DNA from: an uncultured Bacteroidales bacterium
Lineage (GTDB): Bacteria > Bacteroidota > Bacteroidia > Bacteroidales > UBA12077
Reading direction: 5' to 3'
DNA: 64,000 nt
Assembly (NCBI GenBank): GCA_964450375.1
Contig: CAYVEW010000003.1
Location: 935 to 64,934, forward strand
The translations under genes were made by a program, and so were the position numbers. The notes below the pieces were generated by a model, which ran no database searches, was not told where the DNA came from, and was given only the letters and a program-made list of their open reading frames with translations. The stretch's first letter is position 1. Each line of letters begins with the position of its first letter. This document shows positions 2,307 through 16,375 of the stretch, one piece after another.

Positions 2307-3299
2307 ATGATATCGCGTGTATTAAAAAGTAATCAGCCTTTTGTAATTGTTTTCACTATCCTGCTCGGAGTGGGTTTGTGGTTATATAGTTTCTTAGAGC
2401 CCATACCCATGGCAATACCAGGCGATCAGTTAAAAATGCCCTTTTACACATTTGTTGCCGGTTTATTTAGCTATAAATCAACAGCATCTATTATTTTCTC
2501 TTTTGTACTGGTAATATTACAAGCTTTTTTACTGGTTCAATTTAATAAAAAATACATCCTGATTAATTATCGGACTTATTTACCTGCTTTTTTTTATATT
2601 CTAATTGCAAGTAGTTTTGTTCAGTTACAACGTTTAAATCCGGTTGGAATTGGGGTTATTTTTATCTTTATCGCCATTGATTTTATTTATGGTACTTATC
2701 GATCGGAGTATACATTAAGCAGATTGTATTTAGCTGGCTTTTTTGTTTCCATTGCATCCTTATTTTGGGCTCCATTTGCGGCATTATTTTTAATTATCTG
2801 GATCTCATTAACCATTTTACGCCCATTTGTTGGCAGAGAATGGATTGTTAGTTTACTGGGGTTTTTAACACCCTACTTATTTGGGTTTGTATATTATTTT
2901 GTGTTTGCCGATAGTCAGTTAAATGATTTTCTTCATGCTTTTTCTCAAAGTTTTGATTTAATAAAACAGTTTCATCATTTACATTATTCGTATTATATAT
3001 TTTATGGATTTCTTTTATTGGTTATGCTTTTTGCCAGCTTTAATATTATACGAGGCTTTCAAACGAAAAAAATTAAAACAAGAAAGTTTTTTGAAATTAA
3101 CTGGTGGCTATTTATGCTCGGTATTCTCATGTTTATCTTATTAAAGAACGTAAAATATGAGATTATCTTTTTATTGGGAATTCCTTTATCTTATTTATTA
3201 AGCGATTATTTTTATTCCATAAAACGTAACTGGTATTTAAATTCAATACTTATAATATTAATAGCATCGCTTGTATACATACAAATAATAGCACATTAA
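2307..3299 (+). CDS. Polytopic integral membrane protein of unknown function
   Basis: 330 aa with roughly 9-10 hydrophobic segments. Lies 11 bp after purD on the same strand. No catalytic motif recognised. Confidence 0.7.
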   Translation: MISRVLKSNQPFVIVFTILLGVGLWLYSFLEPIPMAIPGDQLKMPFYTFVAGLFSYKSTASIIFSFVLVILQAFLLVQFNKKYILINYRTYLPAFFYILIASSFVQLQRLNPVGIGVIFIFIAIDFIYGTYRSEYTLSRLYLAGFFVSIASLFWAPFAALFLIIWISLTILRPFVGREWIVSLLGFLTPYLFGFVYYFVFADSQLNDFLHAFSQSFDLIKQFHHLHYSYYIFYGFLLLVMLFASFNIIRGFQTKKIKTRKFFEINWWLFMLGILMFILLKNVKYEIIFLLGIPLSYLLSDYFYSIKRNWYLNSILIILIASLVYIQIIAH

Positions 3300-3310
3300 G
3301 TATGTGCTAT
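3288..3310. terminator. Hairpin between convergent genes; possible bidirectional terminator
   Basis: Perfect 9-bp stem ATAGCACAT/ATGTGCTAT with 5-nt loop; the stop codon of 2307..3299 sits in the loop. The T-rich flank is on the minus-strand side (TATTATTTGT); there is no clean U-tract on the plus side. Confidence 0.35.
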
Positions 3311-3333
3311 TAAAACTTTATAAAGAGTTGTGA

Positions 3334-3789
3334 TTATAATTTCTTAACGAACGAAAGTAAAGCAACTGCTAATCCTTGTTCTCCTTCTCTAAATGTAATC
3401 CATATATGATAAACTCCAGTGCTTGAGCACTTAAAGCTTACTTTCGGATAGCTTTGTCCTGTAGCAATATTGTAGTTTGTCGATAATAATCGGTTGTTAT
3501 CATAGAGCGAGAATACGGCTTGTCCCGAATAATCATTTGAATTACAGATGGTAAATAAATACTCTGTATTTTTACTCAATACAACAGAATATCTTGCTAC
3601 GGGGGGTTCTTCTCCTGGTCCGGCAGCATCAAGTTTTACCTGGAAATCTTTTAAGTACATTACATCTTCGCCGGCAACCATACCACATATATCAACAAGT
3701 TCCTGCCCCGATTGAGCGAATAGTTTGTTGCTATTGGCACTAATTAGAAATATTGCAAATAAGGTTAATATAAATAATGTGTTTCTCAT
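3334..3789 (-). CDS. Small secreted protein, unknown function (last gene of the minus-strand string)
   Basis: 151 aa with a signal peptide (LFILTLFAIFLISANSNKLFAQ). Starts 2 bp after the upstream lipoprotein gene ends. Confidence 0.6.
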   Translation of the reverse strand: MRNTLFILTLFAIFLISANSNKLFAQSGQELVDICGMVAGEDVMYLKDFQVKLDAAGPGEEPPVARYSVVLSKNTEYLFTICNSNDYSGQAVFSLYDNNRLLSTNYNIATGQSYPKVSFKCSSTGVYHIWITFREGEQGLAVALLSFVKKL

Positions 3790-3791
3790 AT

Positions 3792-4709
3792 TTACAATTG
3801 TATTATTTTATTTCGAACTTCAGCAGTTTTATCGATTATTTTAAACATGGTTTCGTTTGTAATATCAATATACTGTTTGTCATTCTGTTTAATTGTTAAG
3901 ATGCCATCAATAACAACTGTTTCTGGTTCTCCTTTTTCGTATGTTATGGTAACATCTTTATAAATATTTTGTATTTCCGTAAGATCGTCAATTAACACTT
4001 TAAATTTTGGATCTCGTTCATAATTTCTTAGTAAAAGCATTAAGTTGCTCAAAATAATTTTTTGTTCGCCAATTTTTTCTGAAAGTTCGGCATTTGGAGA
4101 TCTTCTAACAACTTCGCCTAATAAATACATACTTTCAATCCAAATACCAGCAACCATTAAAGAACTTAAATTACTCCTGTTGTTTTCACGCAAATATTGG
4201 TCCATTTGGTTAAAATTCTGAACAGAAATAGTCATTAATGAGTCAAGATTCTGATTATTAGTAGCTAATCGCTTCAGTGTTGTAAAGTCGAAAAACTGTC
4301 CAACGCGAATACCATCAGCTAACGTTTTAATGGTTGAAATATAATCAATCACCGAACCGGTTTTGTTGTACATATTCTGATAACCCAGGTCTGCCGCATA
4401 AATGCCTAGACCCAAAGCTTTTTTAAAACTTGTATTATAACTATCAATATAATCGGTGGTAGCTAAATATTCCTTAGAATAAGGTACACCTACCGCTTTA
4501 ATCAATGCTGCAATTTCTACTGGCGACGAGATATTTTGTACGATATCCTTCATTGCTTCTTCAGAAATTTCGTATTCTCCTTCGTATATTACTGAATCAG
4601 GAATTTCAAATTCCTGAGAATAGTCCGAATCTTTTGATTTATCTGAACGGCACGCTGCAAAAATCAGTAATGGTATTAGTATGTAAATCAAACGTTTGCT
4701 CATAATCAA
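3792..4709 (-). CDS. Lipoprotein, unknown function, predicted mostly helical
   Basis: 305 aa with lipobox LLIFAAC-R near the N-terminus. An alternative start at 4703 (MSKRL) is possible. Confidence 0.65.
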   Translation of the reverse strand: MIMSKRLIYILIPLLIFAACRSDKSKDSDYSQEFEIPDSVIYEGEYEISEEAMKDIVQNISSPVEIAALIKAVGVPYSKEYLATTDYIDSYNTSFKKALGLGIYAADLGYQNMYNKTGSVIDYISTIKTLADGIRVGQFFDFTTLKRLATNNQNLDSLMTISVQNFNQMDQYLRENNRSNLSSLMVAGIWIESMYLLGEVVRRSPNAELSEKIGEQKIILSNLMLLLRNYERDPKFKVLIDDLTEIQNIYKDVTITYEKGEPETVVIDGILTIKQNDKQYIDITNETMFKIIDKTAEVRNKIIQL

Positions 4710-4784
4710 TATGGTTGATTTTCAGTTATAATGCAAATTTAACATATCTTATAAAGATATAAAAATATTCCTTATTTCGAAATA

Positions 4785-7700
4785 TTATTTTTTCAACTTA
4801 ATTTTTTCCGGTAAATCCAGTAACTTTTTAAGTACTTCGTAATAGAGTGTAACATATAAGAATGCTGTCATAACCCAAATAAATATCATGTTAAACCAAT
4901 AGGTTTCATGGTATTTACCTGCAAAATATTTTCGTGGTGCATAAAAATGAGATCTGAAATTGAAAAATCCTTCAACATCCGGATCTTTAAATATAGGATC
5001 TTTCTGTTGTACCAACTCATCTTTATACTGTATAATCATATTTTTTTCAAATACTTTCTTTACCTGATCTTCAACACTTTCGTTGTGATATGCATTTCGT
5101 TTGCTTCGATACAACTCAGCATTTTTATTTAGTAAGTATCGAACAATGTTCTCTTTTTCGTTATTTGCTTTTTGAAAAATTACACTGTAATACGTTTCGA
5201 GTTTCTCAACAAACTCAATGGTTTTATTCAGTACAATTTCGTTAAACAGAGTTGTGTCTAGCTGATGAGCCGACTCAAATGGTATACCGGTTCTTTGCAC
5301 TTCTTTTGTTAATTCCTTTCTTAAGAGACTTAAATATTCAGCAGCTTTCTCCTTTACATCCTGATCTGTTTCAAATTTCCACCAGTTATCTTCTAAATAA
5401 GTAATTCGCTTTTCGAGTTCGGGTATGTAATAAACTTGCTTAAAATCGGCATTGCTTTCTCTCTTTTCTATATCGTAGAAATTTTTTTCGAATTCATTAT
5501 TTTTAAACTGATTTACCATTAATGCTTCAAACGACCATTTTGTAGGCATAAATTCTGCAATTAAAGGCACTTTTTTTACACTTCCCACGGCACGGTTCAT
5601 CTTATCGAAAGGAAACATCGCCCCGCTTAAAATCATCATTGGAATCATTAAAAGCGGTATTAAGATATAGATTGTTACAGCTGAGTTAAATGATGCAGAA
5701 ACGTTAAGCCCAAGCATGTTTGCAAATGCAGCAGTGGTGAATAAAGCAAACCAATATTCGAAAGTCATTGATCTGATTCCTAATATATTATTTGCGATCA
5801 ATACAAATAAGATGGCTTGTATGGCCGAGATGGAAAATAGGATAAATATTTTGGAAACCAAATAGCTCGATCTGCTCAAATTAAGAAAAGCTTCTCTTTT
5901 CAGAATTTTCCGGTCGCGGAATATTTCCTCTGCACTTACTGTTAATCCTAAGAAAAGAGCGACGATTAAACCCATGAAAATATAAATGTTTATGTTCTCA
6001 TTTTCGCGGAATATATACACTTTAGAATTAGGATCTGCTATGTAGCGGATAATATAGGATAATATAAATCCTAAAACGGGTGCTTCAAGCAAGTTTAATG
6101 CGATGTACTGAGTATTGCTTATTTTAGAAAGAAAATCGCGTATGGTATAAATTTTTAGTTGCCTGAACCATGAAGGGATGCTCAGGGTTGAAGGTGGATT
6201 TTCTTTAACAACTTCAATTTCTTCGAGTTTTATATTTTCACGGAAATTCTCTTCCCATTTTTGGGGCGAAATCTTTCGTTTGGGTGTATACTTACCGAAT
6301 TCATCAACTACTTTTGCTTCAATTATGTTAAATATGAGTTCGGGGTTTACATTACCGCAAGTGGGACATTCGCCTACATCACTGTTAATTTGGGCATCCA
6401 AACGTTTAAAATACATAACACCTTCAACCGGATTTCCATAATAGATCATGTAACCACCGGTATCTAAAATCATCATGTTATCGAACATTTTATAAATGTC
6501 GGATGATGGTTGATGTATGACCACAAAAATAAGTTTGCCTTTTAATGCTAATTCACGCAAAAGGTCCATTACATTTTCGGAATCTCGTGATGATAATCCG
6601 GATGTTGGTTCATCAACAAACAGGATCGATGGTTCGCGAATAAGCTCCAAAGCTATATTTAGTCTTTTTCTTTGACCACCGCTAATCATTTTATTTAACG
6701 GAGAACCGACTTTCAGGTCTTTTCTGTCGTAAAGCCCTAAACTGGTTAATGTTTTATGCACTAACTCTACAATTTCTTCTTCTGTTTTATCATTAAAACA
6801 GAGTTTTGCATTGTAGTATAAATTCTGAAAAACGGTTAATTCTTCAATTAAAAGATCATCCTGGGGAATATATCCAATAACACCTTCAAGTTTTTCTTTT
6901 TCGGTATGCAGATTGACACCATTAATAAGAATTTCACCGGATGTGGGTTTATTTAATCCTGCCAGTACATTTAGAAGTGTGGTTTTTCCGGCACCACTTG
7001 CTCCCATTAAGCCAATCAGTTTTCCCTGATCTTCGGAGAAATTAATGTCTCTTAGTCCGATTCCACCATTTGGGAAAACATAATTAATATTTCTTGCTGT
7101 GTATGATATTTTTGTTGATGTGCTATCGGCCAGGTAGTGAGCAACAATATCACTATAATAAATTGGTTTGCCTTTGGGCAGTTTTATGGTTCCTCCGGAA
7201 GCAAATAAGTAAATTCGTTTGTTATTTACAGGTAAACCATTTAAGAATATGTCTTCTTTCCCATTATAACGCATAAAGTAGAGATCAACACTTCTAACCT
7301 GTAGGATAAAAATATTGCCATCTAAGGCTTCAACTTTAACATGTTTGCATTGTTTGTAGTCGATCTCATCCTGTTCATTAATAATAAGGTTTGCAGGATT
7401 ATCAAGTTCCGATATTTCATTGTGTATTACGAAACTTTCAATACTTAAAAATTCTTCTTTGGTAAGTTTAAATACTTCGGCAACGGTATTGATAATGGCC
7501 ATTCGTTGTTCCGAGAATTTTCGGTCGGCATTTACAAGCTCGAACAAACGCACCAAAACAATTACTTTTTGCTGTTGCGTAAGTGTTTTGTTGATTTTTT
7601 TACATATTCCTAAAATTCTTACTGAATCTTTAACCGAAGTTAGCTTTACGGTATCTGATTTTTCAGCTTTTTCTTCGTTAAATCCGGCCTTTTCATCGAA

Positions 7701-7850
7701 AAGAGCAAGATACTCCGGAACTGCTTCATCATTAAGCTGTTGAGTTAAGAAATTTTTTACATATTCCCTTTCGTTGGATTCTACTCCTTCGTCTTGTTTT
7801 GCAATAATTGCAAATAACTGCATAAGGGCTTTCAATATTTCTTCACTCAT
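4785..7850 (-). CDS. Fused ABC transporter: N-terminal TerB-like domain, uncharacterised beta-rich linker, ABC ATPase, ABC-2 (ABCG-like) permease, long C-terminal extension with a terminal TM helix
   Basis: 1021 aa. Walker A GASGAGKTT (aa 283-291), signature SGGQRKR, Walker B ILFVDEPTSGLS, H-loop VIHQPS. About 6 TM helices at aa ~570-770. The N-terminal ~130 aa resemble TerB (paired amphipathic helices with D-x-x-x-E, e.g. AIIAKQDEGVESNEREYV). Confidence 0.85.
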   Translation of the reverse strand: MSEEILKALMQLFAIIAKQDEGVESNEREYVKNFLTQQLNDEAVPEYLALFDEKAGFNEEKAEKSDTVKLTSVKDSVRILGICKKINKTLTQQQKVIVLVRLFELVNADRKFSEQRMAIINTVAEVFKLTKEEFLSIESFVIHNEISELDNPANLIINEQDEIDYKQCKHVKVEALDGNIFILQVRSVDLYFMRYNGKEDIFLNGLPVNNKRIYLFASGGTIKLPKGKPIYYSDIVAHYLADSTSTKISYTARNINYVFPNGGIGLRDINFSEDQGKLIGLMGASGAGKTTLLNVLAGLNKPTSGEILINGVNLHTEKEKLEGVIGYIPQDDLLIEELTVFQNLYYNAKLCFNDKTEEEIVELVHKTLTSLGLYDRKDLKVGSPLNKMISGGQRKRLNIALELIREPSILFVDEPTSGLSSRDSENVMDLLRELALKGKLIFVVIHQPSSDIYKMFDNMMILDTGGYMIYYGNPVEGVMYFKRLDAQINSDVGECPTCGNVNPELIFNIIEAKVVDEFGKYTPKRKISPQKWEENFRENIKLEEIEVVKENPPSTLSIPSWFRQLKIYTIRDFLSKISNTQYIALNLLEAPVLGFILSYIIRYIADPNSKVYIFRENENINIYIFMGLIVALFLGLTVSAEEIFRDRKILKREAFLNLSRSSYLVSKIFILFSISAIQAILFVLIANNILGIRSMTFEYWFALFTTAAFANMLGLNVSASFNSAVTIYILIPLLMIPMMILSGAMFPFDKMNRAVGSVKKVPLIAEFMPTKWSFEALMVNQFKNNEFEKNFYDIEKRESNADFKQVYYIPELEKRITYLEDNWWKFETDQDVKEKAAEYLSLLRKELTKEVQRTGIPFESAHQLDTTLFNEIVLNKTIEFVEKLETYYSVIFQKANNEKENIVRYLLNKNAELYRSKRNAYHNESVEDQVKKVFEKNMIIQYKDELVQQKDPIFKDPDVEGFFNFRSHFYAPRKYFAGKYHETYWFNMIFIWVMTAFLYVTLYYEVLKKLLDLPEKIKLKK

Positions 7851-7894
7851 AGCTTATGAATTAAAAAATGATATCAGATGTAAAAGCAATTGGT

Positions 7895-8275
7895 TTATAA
7901 AGTATAACTTACTTGTTCGAATGGTACATCAACAATGTCAGCATATTCTTCACCGGCTTCTTCCATGTCTTCATCATCTTCGGGATAATACCATTTTATT
8001 AGCACTTCTTTACCATTCTCGTGCATTTCTTCCAGTTTCATAAGAATGTCAAGAATTAGTTTTGATGAAGCGGTATTGAAATAAACCAGTTTAAATGCAA
8101 AAACCGTTTTATCGTTTGCTTCTTCCTGATAATCGTCTAACCAGTTAAGGATAGGCTCATAAAATGTAGTTACATCCTCAGGAAGCGATCTGCCTGAAAT
8201 TTCAAAAATACCATTATCCTTGTCGAGAATTATAGTAGGGGTATCATCTGTACCTTTTATCTTTATTACTTCCAT
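7895..8275 (-). CDS. SiaC-like regulatory phosphoprotein (DUF1987 family)
   Basis: 126 aa. TPTIILDKDNGIFEISGRSLPEDVTTFYEPILNWL and VYFNTASSKLILDIL are the characteristic DUF1987 blocks. Lies next to a SiaB-like kinase and a PP2C phosphatase. Confidence 0.8.
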   Translation of the reverse strand: MEVIKIKGTDDTPTIILDKDNGIFEISGRSLPEDVTTFYEPILNWLDDYQEEANDKTVFAFKLVYFNTASSKLILDILMKLEEMHENGKEVLIKWYYPEDDEDMEEAGEEYADIVDVPFEQVSYTL

Positions 8276-8293
8276 GATATTTTAACGTTTTTA

Positions 8294-8869
8294 TTAAGCA
8301 TTTCTAGAAATTGATGATGTTAATAAGAAGAACGAACTTCCTTCGTCAATCGGTAAAAAGTGGAATTCCAGCTTATTTCCGGTTTTTCGGGCTATGTCAA
8401 TGAAACCAAGCCCTGCACCACCTTTTTCAGAAAGTCTTCCTTCTTTCATCTGATTTTTATACAGTTGCTTCAGACCATCTTTGTCTAAGCTGTTGATATG
8501 GTCCAACATTTCAGTAAGCTCTTCGATTTTGTCATTTTCGATTACATTACCTGTGGTAACATGATAATCGGTTTTTCCTTTACTTACCATGAAAATGCCT
8601 CGTCCTGCAAAAAGAAAATCATCTGATCCAAAAGAATCGGCGTGTTTACTAATGTTTTGCAGACACTCAACCATAACATGGAATACCTTCTTCTGCACTG
8701 AGTTTGCCTCTGACTCCTTAGCCATGTTTGATTCAGTAAGAGAAGTAAATGCTTTGGTAATCTGGTGGGTAATTTCCCCCTCATATACCAAAGTGATCTC
8801 GTGAGCTTTCATTGATCTGTAAAAATCGTAAACAAATTCCAGAAAGCCTTTTACATTACTTTTATCCAT
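8294..8869 (-). CDS. SiaB-like protein kinase (GHKL/HATPase-fold, anti-sigma-kinase-like)
   Basis: 191 aa. N-box-like ECLQNISKHA and G-box KGGAGLGFIDIARK. Size and context match SiaB-family kinases. Confidence 0.75.
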   Translation of the reverse strand: MDKSNVKGFLEFVYDFYRSMKAHEITLVYEGEITHQITKAFTSLTESNMAKESEANSVQKKVFHVMVECLQNISKHADSFGSDDFLFAGRGIFMVSKGKTDYHVTTGNVIENDKIEELTEMLDHINSLDKDGLKQLYKNQMKEGRLSEKGGAGLGFIDIARKTGNKLEFHFLPIDEGSSFFLLTSSISRNA

Positions 8870-8907
8870 AGGTTGTAAAATTAATATTTATTAAAATTAA
8901 TAAAAAA

Positions 8908-11514
8908 TTAAAATTCTATTCCAATCAATAACACATCATCGATTTGTTTGTTCTTACCCATCCATTTTTTAAAATCGACAGAAAACAAGTTCGAATATTG
9001 TTGCATTGATAAATTATTGTTCTCTAAAATGTTATCTCTAATTCGCTGTGGCGAGTATTTTCTTCCTTCCGGACCACCAATCTGGTCTGGCAATCCGTCA
9101 GAGAATATAAATATTTTATCGCCTTTTTTAATTTCAATAATGTGATTTATAAAATCTTTCTCCGCCTTTTTGCGATGAGGAATTCCACCTATCGCTTTTC
9201 TATTTCCTTTATATTCCAGAAGTTCACCATCCCTTAGCAGAAATAAAGGCCGATGAGCTCCTGCATATTGTAATTGTTTTTTCTTCGGATCAATTCTACA
9301 TAAAGCAATATCCATTCCATCGCGTGCATCTGCATCAATTCTGTCTTGTTTTAAGGTTGTTCTTACTCCAAAATGCAACTTATCTAAAATTTGCCCTGCT
9401 GTATAGTTTACATCATGATCGACAATATTGTTTAATTGAAAATATCCGATAAAAGATAAAAGTGCACCGGGAACCCCATGGCCTGTACAATCTACAGCCG
9501 AAATATAAAGTATATCTTCTTTTTTAAAGAACCATGGAAAATCGCCACTTACCACATCGCGTGGTTTATAAAAAATAAATGATTTTGGCAGATATTCCTG
9601 AATAATAGTTGTGCTTGGTAAAATAGATGTTTGAATTCGTTGAGCGTAATTGATACTTTCGTTAATCTTTTTGTTTTTATCAATGATCTCAAGTTCAATT
9701 TGTTTTGCTTCGGTAATATCGTGCCCCACAAATAGAACGGTCTCCAGTTCATTTTCGTTAAATTCCGGTATTGCGTTAAAGCTCATTATACGCTCACCCA
9801 GTTTAGCTGTTGGGGTAGTTAATTCTTCGTTAATCTTTTGGTTGGTCTTACGCACCTGGCGTATCGTTTCTTTGAAAAATGTGGATAATGTTGGCTCAAT
9901 GTTTAACTCGTCGATCCGCGAATTAATAATTTCTGCCGCTTTCATACCCATAAAATTCTCAACCATAGGATTGGCATAGAAAAACTGTCCCTTGGTATTC
10001 ATTCGTAAAATCAGGTCGGGACTGTTTTCAGAAAGAGACTGCATTTTACTTTTCATTCGTTCTTCTTTTTCTGCTCTCTTTCTTTCGGTTATATCCTGCG
10101 AATTTAGAATAATACCACTAATTGCAGCATCATCCAGCAGATTTCTACCGGTTGTTTCAATGTGAATTTTTTTACCGTCCTTTTTTATATAGGTGTATTG
10201 AATGGTTCGTGGAGTGTGCGGATCTTCTAAAAGCAAATCAAACATTTCTTTCATGGCAGCTTCACCCTTGGCGGTAAGCCGGTCCATGTCTTTTCCGCTC
10301 ATCATTTCTTCAGGAGTGTATCCTAAGATTTTTAACACCGACGGACTTTGATATTTCAGTTTTAGTTCTTCGTCGTAAATTGAAATTACTTCCGATGCAT
10401 TTTCCAGCAGGGAATGTAAACGTTTTTGGGCATTTTCAACTTCTTTAACCTGAGTTTCTAAATTACGATTCGAAATTTCGAGCTCTTCCTGGGTTGCTCT
10501 CATTTCTTCGGCATTTTGTCGAAGTTGTTCTTCGTTGGCTCTTAACTCTTCGGTCATTTTCTGAGACTCCTGCAACAGTTTCTCAGTTTTCTGGTTCATA
10601 CGAAGATTATACAGCGTACGGGCAATAATTTCTCCCAGTTCTTTTAAAAAATCGATTGTTAATTGCGGAAACTGGTCTTTGATTGATGCAAACTCAAGTA
10701 CCCCCTGAAGTTTTTCTTCAGTTATTAATGGTACAATTAAAATGCTGCAAGGTTTTTTATCGCCTAAAATTCCTGATGTTATGGTAGCATAATCTTCCGG
10801 AATCTCGGTTCTGTAAACAAAAGCCTTTTCGTAAGCACATTGCCCTATTAATCCTTCGCCCACATTAAATTCCTGGTTAATATATCTTCTGCGATTGTAA
10901 GCGTAGGTTGCAATATTTTGAAGTTTTTGTTCTTCTTCGTCATAAATATAAAAAGCACCCTGAATAATGTCAACATACTTAATTAGCTGAACAACAACTT
11001 CGTAAGCTAACTCGTTGATGTTATTGTGCATTCGAAGAATTCCTGAGATCAGATCTTTTCCTTCGGATATCCAGTTTTGTTCTTTTTCTTTTTTGCTGTT
11101 TGCTAAAAGGTTATCGCGCATTAACAGCAACGATTTGGCCAGTATATCGTCTTTACTCGAAACATCAACACTTTCGTCGTAATTACCTTCGCCAATTTTT
11201 TTTGCTAGGGTTGCATTCTTGCTAATGTTTTGATCGCGTTGTTCAATAATCTTCTTAAAAACTTCTTTGTCACGCTCCCGGTGCTGCAAATAAATGTATA
11301 TTATGCCAGCAATAACGATAGGGCTAACATTAATTATCCAATGAATTGGATTTGACTGATGAATTTGGGCAATTGTTTTAAAACTTACGGGTAAGTTGTT
11401 AACGAGAATATCGATTATCCATGAGATAAGAATCAGGATAAATGAAATTCCGACACCAATAATTATATCGTTGTAAGAGATTTTACGTATTTGGTTATCT
11501 TTATCTACAGCCAT
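8908..11514 (-). CDS. Membrane sensor phosphatase: TM / HAMP-like / GAF / E,Q-rich coiled coil / 2x PAS / PP2C (SpoIIE) domain (SiaA-like role)
   Basis: 868 aa. N-terminal TM helices. GAF block (GEGLIGQCA...EIPEDYATITSGILG...LEFAS). PAS S-boxes. C-terminal SpoIIE/PP2C motifs (VSGDFPWF, DCTGHGVPGA, DGMDIALC, FSDGLPDQ). Confidence 0.85.
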   Translation of the reverse strand: MAVDKDNQIRKISYNDIIIGVGISFILILISWIIDILVNNLPVSFKTIAQIHQSNPIHWIINVSPIVIAGIIYIYLQHRERDKEVFKKIIEQRDQNISKNATLAKKIGEGNYDESVDVSSKDDILAKSLLLMRDNLLANSKKEKEQNWISEGKDLISGILRMHNNINELAYEVVVQLIKYVDIIQGAFYIYDEEEQKLQNIATYAYNRRRYINQEFNVGEGLIGQCAYEKAFVYRTEIPEDYATITSGILGDKKPCSILIVPLITEEKLQGVLEFASIKDQFPQLTIDFLKELGEIIARTLYNLRMNQKTEKLLQESQKMTEELRANEEQLRQNAEEMRATQEELEISNRNLETQVKEVENAQKRLHSLLENASEVISIYDEELKLKYQSPSVLKILGYTPEEMMSGKDMDRLTAKGEAAMKEMFDLLLEDPHTPRTIQYTYIKKDGKKIHIETTGRNLLDDAAISGIILNSQDITERKRAEKEERMKSKMQSLSENSPDLILRMNTKGQFFYANPMVENFMGMKAAEIINSRIDELNIEPTLSTFFKETIRQVRKTNQKINEELTTPTAKLGERIMSFNAIPEFNENELETVLFVGHDITEAKQIELEIIDKNKKINESINYAQRIQTSILPSTTIIQEYLPKSFIFYKPRDVVSGDFPWFFKKEDILYISAVDCTGHGVPGALLSFIGYFQLNNIVDHDVNYTAGQILDKLHFGVRTTLKQDRIDADARDGMDIALCRIDPKKKQLQYAGAHRPLFLLRDGELLEYKGNRKAIGGIPHRKKAEKDFINHIIEIKKGDKIFIFSDGLPDQIGGPEGRKYSPQRIRDNILENNNLSMQQYSNLFSVDFKKWMGKNKQIDDVLLIGIEF

Positions 11515-11527
11515 AAGATATAAATAA

Positions 11528-12298
11528 TTAATATTTGCTTAAAGCTTTTCCAATTTGCTCATTCATTCCTTCAAACAATTGATTAAAGTTTTTCTTAAAC
11601 TCTTTAAACGAAGCTAACTCGATAATTGCAATTGTTTCCTCCTGATAAACAATTGGAATAATGTTTAAGTGATTTGGCGAGCTGCTTCCTAATCCGGATA
11701 ATATCGTAACATAGTTTTCAGGAATTTCTTTTAAATTCAGTACGGTTTTGTTTTTTGCTGCCTGCCCCGACAAACTTTCACCTATTTTAAAACTTTTGGG
11801 TTCTTCTTCACCAAAGTATGCATATTTACCGGCAATATTAAAAATATCTGATTCTTTTTCTTTAACAAAAAACAAACCTTGCACAATATTGAATTCTTTG
11901 GCGATATTACTTAATAACTTTTCGGTGTACTTGACCAAATCCATTTTGGAATCTTCTTTTGGCAAGATCTTTTTAATGTAACTATCGATATCTAATAATT
12001 CATCTTGTGAAACATCATTTGAGTTTTCGTCTTTTTTCGAAGAATCATCATCCAATATTTTTATTTCTGATGATAAGTCTTCGGCTTCGGATTGTCTGCC
12101 ACTAAGAATTACCGCAACAAATAGGATAAATCCAAAGATGATTAAAAGAATGATTAAAACGTAGATGCCATTTCCACCAAGCTTGATTTGGTTTTCTGCA
12201 ATCAGGTTTCGAATGCTGCTAAACAGAATAAATGATATTATTAACTCTGCAATTAGAGAAATAAAAGCTAATATTTTAATTATCTTCGAATTATTCAT
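11528..12298 (-). CDS. Two-TM membrane protein with acidic linker and C-terminal GAF domain
   Basis: 256 aa with two N-terminal TM helices. The GAF block (IGESLSGQAAKNK...EIPENYVTILSGLG...IELASF) is paralogous to the GAF of the downstream PP2C sensor. Confidence 0.7.
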   Translation of the reverse strand: MNNSKIIKILAFISLIAELIISFILFSSIRNLIAENQIKLGGNGIYVLIILLIIFGFILFVAVILSGRQSEAEDLSSEIKILDDDSSKKDENSNDVSQDELLDIDSYIKKILPKEDSKMDLVKYTEKLLSNIAKEFNIVQGLFFVKEKESDIFNIAGKYAYFGEEEPKSFKIGESLSGQAAKNKTVLNLKEIPENYVTILSGLGSSSPNHLNIIPIVYQEETIAIIELASFKEFKKNFNQLFEGMNEQIGKALSKY

Positions 12299-12307
12299 GA
12301 AATAATA

Positions 12308-12865
12308 TCATTTTATATTTAATAAAAAATTAATAATCTGATTGGTTGTAAATATATGATCAACGGGTGTAATTTTCAAAGATGCTTCGGTCATTGTTTT
12401 AACCTGACATTCGTTTGGATCCTGCACAATAGCAAGCCCTCCCAGTTGTTTTAGTTTTTTTAATCCATTAGCACCGTCCCGGTTTGCTCCCGACAGGATG
12501 ATTCCGATTATTTTATCGCGGTATGCCTGCGCAGCTGTTTCAAAAGTTAAATCAATTGAAGGCCTTGAATGATTTACAGGTTCTTCGGTTGATAAGGCAA
12601 TTCTTTTGTTTAACTCGATGTACATATGATAATTTGAAGGAGCTAAATATCCTCTTCCCGGTTTAATGGTTTCCTTATCATATGGTTCGTCAATCGGTAT
12701 TTTGGATTTTATCGACAGTGCTTCCACAAAGCCAGACCGAACATGTTTTAACCTGTGCAAGCTTAGCAAAACAGGTAAAGGAAAATTTTTAGGTAAGGAA
12801 CTTAATATTTTTGTAATTACCTGAAAACTTCCTGCTGATCCGCCTATAACAACTGCCTTATACAT
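12308..12865 (-). CDS. cheB: CheB-type protein-glutamate methylesterase, catalytic domain only (no receiver domain)
   Basis: 185 aa. VIGGSAGS (Ser nucleophile region), SLHRLKH (His), ILSGANRDGANG (Asp), and LAIVQDP typical of CheB_methylest. Confidence 0.85.
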   Translation of the reverse strand: MYKAVVIGGSAGSFQVITKILSSLPKNFPLPVLLSLHRLKHVRSGFVEALSIKSKIPIDEPYDKETIKPGRGYLAPSNYHMYIELNKRIALSTEEPVNHSRPSIDLTFETAAQAYRDKIIGIILSGANRDGANGLKKLKQLGGLAIVQDPNECQVKTMTEASLKITPVDHIFTTNQIINFLLNIK

Positions 12866-12876
12866 TTAATTTGTCT

Positions 12877-13707
12877 TTAAGATAATTTCTTTTTATAAAT
12901 ACTTTCAGACCGATTAACCAGCGTATAATCCTTATCCGAATTCCAGTATTCAATCTTTTCATTGTTTCCAATAACCAGATGTCCTCCCGGAACCAGACAA
13001 TTATACATAATTTTCACAAAACGTTCCTGTAAAATCTGATTATAATAAATCATTTGATTACGGAACAATATAAACTTAATCCCTTTAGGATAATCATCAA
13101 ATATAATACTTTGTTTGATAAATTTGGTATTATCTATTAAAGAAGTATCCCAATAAGCTTTATCGTTTTCGTATGTAAAATAATCCGATAATTCCGACTC
13201 GGCATAAATACGCTTATAGTTTGCATCGTTGGTTTCGATCTTTTTAGGATCGAAAATCCCGGTTTTTACATTCTCGAGATTTTTTTCGCTGATGGATGAA
13301 ACAATAAACTGGACATTATTTAACAGGTTCAGTTTTTTAAGAACAATTGCGGTGGAATATAATTCTTCACCCGATGAAACTTCCGGAAACCAAATTTTAA
13401 AATTGGGTGTGTTGTTAATTAACTGGGGGAAGTATTCATCATTTAGCACTCTCCACAAGGATGGATCGCGAAACATTTCAGTAACATCAACACACATAAA
13501 TTGTAAAAATGTTTCGATAAAACCGGGCTCTACTTTTAGTTTTTTAAGAAAACCGTCAGCATCTTTTAGGTTGTAGTTTTGGATTAGATTTTCAACCCTG
13601 CGCTTAAAAAAAGTGAGTGCATAATTTTTAAAATCATAATCGTAATCATCTTGCAATGTTTTGATTATCATTCGCGTGTCTACTATGCCTAATTCGAACT
13701 TATTCAT
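12877..13707 (-). CDS. cheR: CheR-family methyltransferase, divergent paralog
   Basis: 276 aa. TEMFRDP, IWFPEVSSGEELYS and FRNQMIYY align with CheR motifs, but the A-S-D-[IL] motif reads V-S-S-I. Confidence 0.8.
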   Translation of the reverse strand: MNKFELGIVDTRMIIKTLQDDYDYDFKNYALTFFKRRVENLIQNYNLKDADGFLKKLKVEPGFIETFLQFMCVDVTEMFRDPSLWRVLNDEYFPQLINNTPNFKIWFPEVSSGEELYSTAIVLKKLNLLNNVQFIVSSISEKNLENVKTGIFDPKKIETNDANYKRIYAESELSDYFTYENDKAYWDTSLIDNTKFIKQSIIFDDYPKGIKFILFRNQMIYYNQILQERFVKIMYNCLVPGGHLVIGNNEKIEYWNSDKDYTLVNRSESIYKKKLS

Positions 13708-13728
13708 TTTTACACACTTTTTCCTTTT

Positions 13729-14568
13729 CTATTTTTTTCTGTAAGCTTGTCCTTTCTTGTCGAATTTTGATGTAATTTCTCCAAGCATGGTTTCGTGCAT
13801 ACCTAATACTAAATACCCATTGGTATATAAATGATCGTGAAATAATTTAAAAACTTTATTTTGCAGGCTGTATTTAAAATAGATTATTACATTTCTACAA
13901 AGAATTAAATCAAATTTTGCAAAATACAAGTTTCCTCCTTTTACCAGATCATGTTGTCTGAAAATAGGTTTTTTCTTCAGAAACTCGTTCATTGTAATGG
14001 TATCGGTAACCTTATCTATTTTAAAATACTTGTTATAAGGAACATCGTTATATTCATCGTAATTAAACGGATTTTCCTTAATAACCTTATCAAAATTATC
14101 CAGATAGCCAATGTTAAAACGATACTTATAATTACCTTTTTTGGCAGCTTCCAGAGCATCTATATTTAAATCGCTGGCAAATATTTTAGCTTTATCGAGC
14201 AAATCCAGCTCATTTAATAGAATCATCATAGAATATACTTCCTGACCGGTTGAGCAGCCGGCATGCCAAATGTTTATATTTTTGTTTTCGGAAAATTTAG
14301 GTAATATTCTGTAGCGCAATGTTTGCCAGATCTGTGGATCACGAAATAATTCGGTTGTGTTAACTGTAATATCTTTAACCGTTTTTTCCAGGAAATCTTT
14401 GTTGGTCTTTAATTTATTAATTAAAGTTAACAGATCCATATTATTATCGATCAAAATTTTTTGTAGGCGCCGTTTTAGTGATTTTTCTGAATACTCACTA
14501 AAATCATAATTCGACACATTTTTAATTGTGTTAATAAAAAAGTTAACATCTTGATCAGTTAGGACCAT
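13729..14568 (-). CDS. cheR: CheR-type protein-glutamate O-methyltransferase
   Basis: 279 aa. TELFRDP, IWHAGCSTGQEVYS, IFASDLN and CRNVIIYF are canonical CheR N-terminal and SAM-binding motifs. Confidence 0.88.
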   Translation of the reverse strand: MVLTDQDVNFFINTIKNVSNYDFSEYSEKSLKRRLQKILIDNNMDLLTLINKLKTNKDFLEKTVKDITVNTTELFRDPQIWQTLRYRILPKFSENKNINIWHAGCSTGQEVYSMMILLNELDLLDKAKIFASDLNIDALEAAKKGNYKYRFNIGYLDNFDKVIKENPFNYDEYNDVPYNKYFKIDKVTDTITMNEFLKKKPIFRQHDLVKGGNLYFAKFDLILCRNVIIYFKYSLQNKVFKLFHDHLYTNGYLVLGMHETMLGEITSKFDKKGQAYRKK

Positions 14569-14716
14569 ACAGACTTTATTAAAAAGTATATTCTTAGTAC
14601 GCTATTTTTTTAAAATAGTTTGAATTAAAATTGTAAAAATAGCGAATATACTTATTTTGTAAAATAATAGTTTAAGAATTAATGAAATTTTATTTTTTAC
14701 TAAATATCAGTTTATA

Positions 14717-16375
14717 ATGAAATTAGATCAGAATAAGCCAACTTTAGCAATCTATGGTATTAAAGATATAAAAAATTCCGGATATCCTGTCTTTGTGCAC
14801 GATCATAATATCACATTTTTTGATAAGGGGCATATAATAAGGTATAATCAGCTGGAAAGAAGCACGCGAAAAAAATATGACAATTCGCTTGATAAGGAAT
14901 TATATCATTTATTAAAATCTGAAAAATTACTGGGTAAAGATTTCGATTTGGTTTTTGTCGACAATGTAATCGGGCGAGCATTTATATCTGATGATGGCGA
15001 AGTTCGATTTGAAGTATCGCCAAATAAAGAACTACATGCTGGACTTGAAAAGGGTAGATGCTGGTGGTATGGCGAACTAAAAGATGCTTACATATTAAAT
15101 CACGAGTTGGCACATATTTATAGCTGTATTCCTTTTTTTGGAGATTTTAAGGGAAACAGCCTGTTGGTGCATTTCGATGGTGGTGCAAGTTTGAGCAATT
15201 TTTCTGCCTGGACATTTCAAAACAGAGAATTAAAGAATGTTGAGTATCATTGGGATTTAAAATATTTGTCATCTTTGTTTAATGCCAACGCATTGTCGTT
15301 TGCAATGATAGGGGCTAAAGAATACGATCAGCATTCGGTGCCCGGCAAGCTTATGGGATTTGCCTCATACGGGAATTATTCGGAACAAATTGAAGAATGG
15401 TTAAAAGCAAATGACTATTTTCAGAATATCTGGGGGAAAAAGGCCATCTTTTTCGATAAAGCAAAAGCAGATTTCGGTGTGGAGTTAAAAAGTTTCGATC
15501 AGCGAAATTCTTTTATACAGAATGTTGCCGCAACTTTTCAGCACATCTTTGTACGGGATTTTATAAAAAAGCTCGAAGCTTTAAAGAATCAAACCAATAC
15601 CGATTATTTGTATTTAACGGGTGGTTCGGCGCTGAATATCTTGGCAAATTCAGAAATTGTTCACAGGAAATTGTTTAAGGATGTTTTTATTCCTCCCTGT
15701 ACGAATGATTCGGGACTTTCAATAGGAGCCGGTGCTTATATGGAGCAATTAAAGCATGGCGAGCTAAAACAGCATGGCCCATATTTAAATAATTGGGATT
15801 TAACCGAAGGGGAATTTAACTATTCTACCAATGATATTGAGCAGGTGGCAGAATTGCTTGTAAACAAGAAAGTTGTTGCTATATGCAACGGACCTGCCGA
15901 AGTTGGCCCCAGGGCTTTGGGTAACCGGAGCATTTTAGCTTTGGCAAACGCTAAGCAACTGGCCAAAAAAGTTAGCGAAGGGCATAAGAAGCGAGAATGG
16001 TACAGGCCCGTAGCTCCTGTTATGCTTGAAAAAAATGCAAAATACTTTACCGGATTAAAAGAAATTCATCATTTGAGCAGATTCATGTTGTTGGATTTTA
16101 AGATTCTGCCAGAAAGAATCCAAGAAATGGAGGGAGCAGTTCATGTGGATGGAACATCGCGAATTCAAACCCTGTTTGAGCGGTGCGAAAATGAATTTAT
16201 GTACGATTTGCTTACGTTCCTGGACGAGAAATATGGTGTTAGGGCGCTGATAAATACATCGTTCAATGTAAAGGGAGAACCCATTGTGCATACTACGGAT
16301 GATGCAATTCGATCGGCAACGAATATGAAATTGGATGCCCTTGTTTTAAATGGTAAACTGCAACTTATAAAGTAA
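14717..16375 (+). CDS. Carbamoyltransferase (NodU/CmcH/TobZ family)
   Basis: 552 aa. HELAHIYS metal-site-like motif in the N-terminal half; C-terminal VHVDGTSRIQT and INTSFNVKGEPIV blocks typical of the carbamoyltransferase C-domain. Confidence 0.85.
   Translation: MKLDQNKPTLAIYGIKDIKNSGYPVFVHDHNITFFDKGHIIRYNQLERSTRKKYDNSLDKELYHLLKSEKLLGKDFDLVFVDNVIGRAFISDDGEVRFEVSPNKELHAGLEKGRCWWYGELKDAYILNHELAHIYSCIPFFGDFKGNSLLVHFDGGASLSNFSAWTFQNRELKNVEYHWDLKYLSSLFNANALSFAMIGAKEYDQHSVPGKLMGFASYGNYSEQIEEWLKANDYFQNIWGKKAIFFDKAKADFGVELKSFDQRNSFIQNVAATFQHIFVRDFIKKLEALKNQTNTDYLYLTGGSALNILANSEIVHRKLFKDVFIPPCTNDSGLSIGAGAYMEQLKHGELKQHGPYLNNWDLTEGEFNYSTNDIEQVAELLVNKKVVAICNGPAEVGPRALGNRSILALANAKQLAKKVSEGHKKREWYRPVAPVMLEKNAKYFTGLKEIHHLSRFMLLDFKILPERIQEMEGAVHVDGTSRIQTLFERCENEFMYDLLTFLDEKYGVRALINTSFNVKGEPIVHTTDDAIRSATNMKLDALVLNGKLQLIK

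Follow-up and report, generated by a model that had tools for sequence, protein, structure and literature searches.

The window analysed here, i.e. the whole 64,000-nucleotide stretch of contig CAYVEW010000003.1 from an uncultured Bacteroidales bacterium, carries a string of genes in which a SiaA/SiaB/SiaC-type partner switch is followed by an ABCG-type ATP-binding cassette (ABC) transporter, hereafter the pump, a lipoprotein and a small secreted protein. The pump and its two partners form a real gene set that is widespread in Bacteroidota, and its frequent occurrence beside SiaB and SiaC genes suggests that the switch probably controls the pump. All genes of the string, and all window coordinates given below, are on the minus strand. 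In the direction of transcription, a GAF-PAS-PAS-PP2C phosphatase gene (8908-11514, with SpoIIE/PP2C, GAF and PAS domains) is followed by genes for a SiaB-family kinase (8294-8869), a SiaC-like protein (7895-8275), the pump (4785-7850, an open reading frame of 1021 residues), the partner lipoprotein (3792-4709, 305 residues when read from a TTG codon) and the small secreted protein (3334-3789, an open reading frame of 151 residues), with CheR and CheB genes located upstream. Orthologues of the lipoprotein open with MSK or MNK, so that its real start is probably the ATG at 4703. Open reading frame calls agree with the positions of the last three genes and with the gaps reported in an initial annotation of this DNA: 44 bp between SiaC and pump genes, 75 bp between pump and lipoprotein genes (81 bp if counted from the ATG at 4703), and 2 bp between lipoprotein and secreted-protein genes.

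Association of pump and SiaC genes

The switch genes were assigned by profile matches. The SiaC-like protein matches Pfam SiaC (PF09345) with an E-value of 2.8e-43 and 146.8 bits, against a cut-off of 24.5, and retains Thr68. The kinase matches NF038262 (SiaB_fam_kinase) with 179.7 bits (cut-off 85), and the SiaA-like phosphatase, whose SpoIIE/PP2C domain spans residues 670-867, scores 166.9 bits with NF038263 (cut-off 700). Since both SiaA and SiaC remain below the NCBI equivalog cut-offs, they are considered here as members of the respective families and not as orthologues. Only one GGDEF gene is present genome-wide, on contig C63, with none in the cluster; thus, the output known from Pseudomonas is not available at the window locus.

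Conservation of the SiaC-pump adjacency, proposed as a check in the initial annotation, was evaluated in a scan of 71 loci with one genome per species, counting those loci whose pump shared 60% identity or more and whose upstream sequence was long enough. A SiaC gene lies directly upstream of the pump in every one of the 57 counted orthologous loci, accompanied by SiaB and usually also by SiaA, and the gap between SiaC and pump measures 21-51 nt in 55 of them. By itself, such adjacency among orthologues could be inherited synteny. It had also been considered that an independent promoter and terminator might separate the two genes, and none was detected: scans of the 44-nt gap in the window yielded no terminator-like hairpin, no good promoter match and no Bacteroidota-type TAnnTTTG box, a motif found in only 3 of the 57 orthologous gaps. 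In simple scans of region 3000-15500, the only terminator-like site on the minus strand was a hairpin after the last gene of the string (3286..3312), featuring an 11-bp stem followed by a T-rich tail.

Stronger evidence comes from paralogous pumps. The genome encodes five pump paralogs (open frames of 1017-1046 residues), three of which adjoin a SiaC paralog, each in a different gene order: SiaA-SiaB-SiaC and then the pump in the window; lipoprotein-small protein-pump facing SiaC-SiaB on the opposite strand on contig C92; and lipoprotein-pump-SiaC on contig C35. The convergent arrangement recurs in other families (loci L079 and L081). In a first set of 14 family members, comprising the paralogs of this genome and nine from other genomes, seven have a SiaC gene within two genes of the pump, as do 17 of 40 further contexts drawn from many families (8 co-directional upstream, 9 downstream and mostly convergent). 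Overall, 24 of 54 family members (44%) are adjacent to SiaC, compared to a chance expectation of about 2% derived from the roughly 3,500 genes of the genome and its approximately 15 SiaC paralogs. On a tree of 58 pump sequences, linkage to SiaC corresponds to 15 changes of this trait, and the pump-adjacent SiaC proteins form two groups corresponding to the two main architectures, in a tree that is weakly supported for this short protein. Convergent gene pairs cannot share a transcript, and co-transcription is therefore not the reason for the association. As the adjacency recurs in rearranged form in paralogous subfamilies and across many families, inherited synteny or co-transcription alone is insufficient to account for it. 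We thus regard functional coupling of the pump unit to SiaB and SiaC as likely.

The N-terminal module of the pump was detected in 218 of 401 genomes and 101 of 200 genera of a class-level sample, compared to 7 of 201 genomes of a phylum-level sample. The families covered differ between these samples, so that the distribution is patchy.

SiaC proteins are not confined to pump loci. An alignment of 19 SiaC sequences shows the N-T/S phospho-site motif in every one of them, and it is likewise present in all paralogs of this genome, which are further found on contigs C5, C11, C13, C18, C30, C32, C72, C80, C91 and C150. Their neighbours include a MacB/FtsX permease (C72), an adenylate cyclase-HD protein (C30), a Y_Y_Y-LuxR regulator (C11) and SiaA/SiaB sets (C80, C150 and C18). 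Two tandem SiaC genes, sometimes with two SiaB genes, precede the pump in the co-directional clusters of loci L087, L098, L102 and L108, and the second copy of such tandem clusters is divergent in the tree. On contig C61, a gene encoding a REC-HisKA-HATPase protein (14431-15591) ends about 10 nt before a pump paralog starting at 15602, with two more hybrid kinase/receiver genes upstream; this paralog appears to be tied to a two-component module in place of SiaC.

Anatomy of the pump and its envelope partners

The pump begins with a cytoplasmic head of two modules, a TerB-like helical bundle (residues 1-142, 7425..7850) and an FHA-like beta-sandwich (residues ~150-245, 7116..7403). Pfam TerB (PF05099) matches residues 8-136 with an E-value of 3.7e-10 and 40.6 bits (curated cut-off 24.4). 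An AlphaFold2 model of residues 1-267, built with 46 sequences and with a predicted local distance difference test (pLDDT) score of 85.6, features a seven-helix TerB-like bundle (residues 3-142, pLDDT approximately 80-95), then a small beta-sandwich (154-230) and then a helix, in keeping with the TerB-like helical N-domain (residues 1-130) recognised in the initial annotation. No part of the head is better conserved than the N-terminal helix, residues 1-18 (MSEEILKALMQLFAIIAK), with a mean column conservation of 0.82 over 58 family members compared to 0.75 for the whole ATPase, and C83 of the bundle is nearly invariant (54 of 58).

The segment after the bundle had initially been left as an unassigned beta-rich linker (residues ~165-250), a description that should probably be revised. 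The top 20 Foldseek matches of the head model in the PDB are all FHA domains (probability 0.33-1.0, in most cases at least 0.95; E-value 0.016-0.14; target TM-score ~0.45-0.5), among them MEK1, Rad53 FHA1, CEP170 and the N-terminal FHA domain of EssC (probability 0.95-1.0). A canonical FHA domain was nevertheless rejected, because Pfam FHA (PF00498) does not match the pump head even at E-values up to 10 and the phosphothreonine-binding Gly-Arg, Ser-x-x-His and Asn residues are not conserved across the pump family, in which only structural Gly and aromatic residues of this domain are invariant. A genome-wide search with PF00498 was also empty. No Pfam family matched residues 137-265, and sequence and profile searches of Pfam, NCBIfam and the PDB with the head gave nothing meaningful as a further identity. 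Judged from the model, residues ~150-245 are probably an FHA-like, phospho-blind domain.

The head is followed by an ABC ATPase domain (residues ~250-485, 6396..7103; Pfam ABC_tran 1.9e-32 at residues 266-417) and, in the same chain, by an ABCG-type permease. Matches to both ABC_tran and ABC2_membrane exceed the Pfam cut-offs. The Walker A motif, Q-loop, SGGQ signature, Walker B D-E and H-loop are invariant in 58 of 58 family members; the ATPase, already described as complete in the initial annotation, is catalytically complete as far as its sequence motifs tell. The linker between nucleotide-binding and transmembrane domains (residues 486-560, 6171..6395; low pLDDT at 487-501) contains a C495-x-x-C498 motif (6357-6368), each Cys of which is found in 55 of 58 family members. 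In a dimer, the two pairs could form a metal or redox site.

The permease region (residues 561-790, 5481..6170; Pfam ABC2_membrane 4.2e-24 at residues 563-782) comprises an elbow helix, transmembrane helices TM1 to TM5 and a re-entrant segment. It is followed by a periplasmic helical domain (residues 791-982, 4905..5480, delimited by hydropathy and AlphaFold2 secondary structure), and by TM6 (residues 984-1007) with a Lys-rich cytoplasmic tail and the stop codon (4785..4904). By hydropathy, the whole pump has six hydrophobic helices, at residues 583-605, 620-640, 668-688, 697-720, 723-741 and 984-1007, and the six Lys in the final 14 residues are as expected for a C-terminus in the cytoplasm. 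The initial annotation had described an ABCG-like six-helix permease with an extra C-terminal region of ~270 residues ending in another transmembrane helix. The ABCG-like permease stands, whereas the seventh helix does not: hydropathy, Lys-rich tail and model all speak against seven-helix topology with an extra tail, and the insert of ~190 residues occupies the EL3 position, i.e. the TM5-TM6 loop, of an otherwise ordinary six-helix ABCG permease. In the AlphaFold2 model of the full-length pump (pLDDT 79.4), this hydrophilic insert forms long helices (792-825, 830-854 and 871-921) and a small beta unit. Conservation over the 58 family members is lowest in the periplasmic domain (0.41), compared to 0.71 in the transmembrane helices. 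Pfam is silent on residues 790-1021, and the insert also lacks a sequence match in the PDB. Longer family members (1083-1321 residues) differ by a larger periplasmic insert only, and no natural SiaC-pump fusion was found among them.

The full-length model matches ABCG1, ABCG2, ABCG5, ABCG8 and plant ABCG16 and ABCG25 with Foldseek E-values of 1e-22 to 1e-18 and target TM-scores of 0.64-0.80 (0.7-0.8 for ABCG1, ABCG2, ABCG5 and ABCG8). The best NCBIfam match of the pump is the white/ABCG family TIGR00955 (2.9e-80), with 270 bits and thus far under the cut-off of 736. No FtsX or MacB_PCD signature was detected in the pump by Pfam, in line with a fold that matches ABCG type V and not type VII.

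Both downstream products are predicted to be exported, as the initial annotation had it. The signal peptide of the lipoprotein ends in a lipobox Cys (LIFAAC in the window), an equivalent of which is present in 61 of 61 orthologues. The small protein has a Sec signal ending in A-Q-S, is beta-rich, and features three invariant Cys residues, C35, C82 and C121. Each represents an orphan family: searches of Pfam, NCBIfam and the PDB gave no match for the lipoprotein and no meaningful match for the small protein, and the 120 lipoprotein relatives listed are all named "hypothetical" and carry no Pfam domain. A lipoprotein paralog adjoins all five pump paralogs of the genome, and at least three of these are accompanied by divergent paralogs of the small protein. 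Including 37 of 49 family members from other genomes, a lipoprotein gene is adjacent to the pump in 42 of 54 cases. Counted set by set, it adjoins 8 of the 9 pumps from other genomes in the first set and 30 of the 40 further ones. Across the class, these genes most often follow the order lipoprotein, small protein, pump; the order pump, lipoprotein, small protein in the window is a variant of it. That pump, lipoprotein and secreted protein constitute one unit is therefore highly probable.

Just past the pump stop codon, an intergenic block TTTTTATATCTTTAT (4751..4765; TTTTTATATCTTTA(T/C)) is kept while the rest of the spacer diverges, even between loci with no more than ~70% protein identity. 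This block may function as an internal promoter of the Bacteroidota type from which the genes of the two partners are transcribed. The motif TAAATTTG (4734-4741) was noted along with it in the spacer between pump and lipoprotein genes.

Several variants of the partner genes were observed. At loci L092 (43-4491) and L122 (10-4479), where lipoprotein and small-protein genes are missing, a protein of ~1490 residues is encoded directly upstream of the pump, within about 20 nt. It consists of CarboxypepD_reg-type beta-sandwich repeats and a C-terminal OmpA domain and is a possible alternative envelope partner; the pumps of these two loci (1083 and 1321 residues) have bigger periplasmic inserts. Elsewhere in the genome of the window, a protein of 390 residues (G000:C5:28571-29743, minus strand) matches the small secreted protein (phmmer 1.4e-11) and ends in a TonB C-terminal domain. 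By eye, it contains two similar segments, suggesting that the fold of the small protein is a reusable periplasmic module. Finally, in two lipoprotein-pump pairs that lack SiaC (L082:11172-11933 and L085:10992-11738), the pump is directly followed by a gene for a membrane protein of ~250 residues, whose N-terminus, judged by eye only, resembles proteins of the DUF218/YdcF-ElyC kind.

Models for a probable coupling of switch and pump

Domain anatomy, topology, intact catalytic motifs and gene associations, as given above, are what the analysis shows. The explanation that we favour for them as a whole is a SiaABC-controlled ABCG-type unit for envelope export or extraction, a proposition for and against which we see about equal grounds. 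The pump is predicted to be an ABCG-fold (ABC-2) half-transporter of the homodimer type with three additions, i.e. the head, the CxxC linker and the periplasmic domain, and would form one machine together with the lipoprotein and the small Cys-containing protein of the periplasm. By analogy with ABCG transporters, our guess for the substrate is a lipid or another hydrophobic envelope component, which would be passed to an outside acceptor. In this lineage, the unit would be under post-translational control of a partner switch consisting of SiaA (PP2C phosphatase), SiaB (kinase) and SiaC (Thr68 phosphoprotein). One phospho-form of SiaC, presumably the unphosphorylated one by the precedent of Pseudomonas, would dock on the cytoplasmic head or on the ATPase and thereby alter ATPase dimerisation or activity. 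Such direct gating of the pump through SiaC binding is conceivable but somewhat short of probable, the physical contact and its sign being what we infer. More doubtful still is the full conjunction, in which SiaC (DUF1987) directly gates an ABCG-type exporter via its TerB/phospho-blind FHA head or its ATPase, the pump, its helical periplasmic stalk, the orphan lipoprotein and the periplasmic protein rich in Cys together represent an undescribed Bacteroidota pathway by which a lipid or envelope component leaves the inner membrane, and CheR/CheB methylation tunes this pathway further in this lineage.

Several observations weigh against this explanation. Of the 54 family members, 30 have no SiaC gene within two genes of the pump, yet share the same TerB/FHA-like head. 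Among 58 sequences with 11-15 independent phylogenetic contrasts, none of the pump residues co-varies with SiaC linkage, and the head shows no enrichment. The Foldseek E-values behind the FHA assignment are weak (0.016-0.3), and an FHA-like domain lacking phosphopeptide-binding residues is no ready-made phospho-reader. Other SiaC paralogs adjoin unrelated proteins, so that adjacency to SiaC is not unique to the pump. Since neither envelope partner has a recognisable fold or family, the transport part of the model is one of analogy. For pumps not linked to SiaC, SiaC paralogs from other loci may take on this role; alternatively, SiaC and the pump may never be in contact. In a smaller comparison of 11 linked and 8 unlinked pumps, TerB positions S76, Q115 and T122 appeared to be specific to SiaC; this signal vanished in the phylogeny-aware test with 58 sequences and was treated as a phylogenetic artefact.

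Some of these observations also fit a pump that is an input to the switch, with SiaA or SiaB reading the transport state or load through the TerB/FHA-like head and SiaC acting on another target. Transporters of the BceAB type report flux to their kinases in such a manner. The presence of the head in all family members with or without SiaC nearby, the lack of SiaC-specific pump residues, and the location of other pump paralogs beside other signalling proteins, e.g. the REC-HisKA-HATPase protein preceding the C61 paralog, are all consistent with this idea. Nevertheless, SiaB and SiaC alone accompany the pump in the convergent architecture, in the absence of a sensor phosphatase; SiaA has GAF and PAS sensor domains of its own; the cluster has no other conserved output; and effector binding is the sole known role of SiaC (PMC8457831). 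We consider an input role unlikely. Less likely still is neighbourhood without contact, in which switch and pump cluster have no more in common than their regulation or a physiological theme, and the target of SiaC is distant. The very diverse neighbours of SiaC paralogs in this genome (such as MacB/FtsX permease, adenylate cyclase-HD and Y_Y_Y-LuxR proteins) would fit such a situation, as would the 56% of pumps without a nearby SiaC. It is at odds, however, with an adjacency of 44% against about 2% expected by chance, with the occurrence of this adjacency in at least three gene orders, including the convergent one across many families where operon co-expression is excluded, and with the dedicated subgroups formed by pump-adjacent SiaC proteins.

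The remaining alternatives concern the activity of the pump and the sign of its control. As in FtsEX or MacB-type systems, ATP hydrolysis could serve to move the long periplasmic helices and thereby activate or release the lipoprotein or the secreted partner with no substrate crossing the membrane, in which case control by the switch could still apply. The periplasmic insert indeed consists of long helices, one of about 50 residues, its conservation is the lowest in the pump, as would fit co-variation with partners, and dedicated envelope partners are always present, the OmpA protein of ~1490 residues replacing them in L092 and L122. On the other hand, known members of the ABCG-type fold translocate substrates, FtsX and MacB_PCD signatures are lacking, and the transmembrane helices are well conserved, as expected for a substrate path, making mechanotransduction an improbable function. 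Phospho-dependent docking, by which the FHA-like domain would read SiaC phosphorylated at Thr68, much as phosphothreonine is read by the FHA domains of Rv1747, and the phosphorylated form would be the active one, appears very unlikely. An FHA-like fold placed right before an ABCG-type ATPase, with a Thr-phosphorylated partner encoded next door, does recall the precedent of Rv1747 (PMC3138270), but the Arg, Ser-x-x-His and Asn residues needed for phosphothreonine binding are not conserved, the Pfam FHA model finds no match, and in Pseudomonas phosphorylation stops SiaC from binding its partner (PMC8457831).

Relation to known systems

To our knowledge, SiaABC-type switches are known only as controllers of cyclic di-GMP synthesis in Pseudomonas. 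The window locus shares with SiaABCD of P. aeruginosa (PMC7647112, PMC8457831) a string comprising a sensor-bearing PP2C phosphatase, a SiaB-family kinase and a DUF1987/SiaC protein with a Thr68-type site, as well as an effector-sized gene directly after siaC. This gene encodes an ABC exporter here and not a diguanylate cyclase, and the sensor with GAF and PAS domains and the CheR/CheB genes upstream are further differences. The Pseudomonas SiaC protein, when unphosphorylated, binds its neighbour SiaD and activates it (PMC8457831, PMC7647112), and it has been proposed by the authors of the SiaC work that DUF1987 proteins generally modulate adjacent proteins (PMC8457831).

A second parallel, drawn from described features, is the FHA-FHA-ABC protein Rv1747 of Mycobacterium tuberculosis, an exporter which is positively regulated by Ser/Thr phosphorylation (PMC3138270). 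It is regulated by the kinase PknF, and the small regulator Rv2623 binds its FHA module (PMC3138270, PMC5549992). Both proteins have an FHA-type module N-terminal to an ABC-2/ABCG-like exporter and a genetic link to a Ser/Thr phosphorylation system. Unlike Rv1747, the window pump has just one FHA-like domain, which follows TerB, is degenerate and lacks the residues that bind phosphothreonine, and the kinase encoded next to it is of the SiaB type (HATPase-like) and acts on a separate phosphoprotein, whereas that of Rv1747 is a Hanks kinase acting on the transporter itself.

With eukaryotic ABCG half-transporters, the pump has in common the order of ATPase and permease, the elbow helix, the six transmembrane helices and the presence of a TM5-TM6 loop. 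It differs from them in being bacterial, in its head of 250 residues composed of TerB and FHA-like domains, in the length (~190 residues) and helical character of that loop, and in having dedicated lipoprotein and secreted partners. The BceAB-BceRS and MacB/FtsEX systems likewise feature an ABC machine with a large periplasmic domain that is tied genetically to a signalling module and to envelope partners. The fold of the pump, however, sets it apart from MacB/FtsX (ABCG type V instead of type VII), and its signalling partner, a partner switch instead of a two-component system, sets it apart from BceAB-BceRS.

The components of the system are thus of known kinds, i.e. a SiaABC switch, an ABCG/ABC-2 exporter, and TerB and FHA-like domains, whereas the literature searched holds no account of their combination, of the periplasmic insert or of either partner family. 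Literature on SiaC, DUF1987, TerB or partner switching in connection with ABC transporters or Bacteroidetes yielded no description of this system. The pump family and the two partner families have no studied member, and they represent a large blind spot in the envelope biology of Bacteroidota. The full cluster is present in cultured relatives such as Perlabentimonas gracilis M08_MB (locus L029), which makes the system testable. With only one GGDEF gene in this organism, the connection of the same switch to a pump suggests another output, which is apparently common among Bacteroidota. If true, direct gating by SiaC would be the first case of a partner switch with a transporter as its output, and ABC transporters switched by a diffusible phosphoprotein would represent a new regulatory principle.

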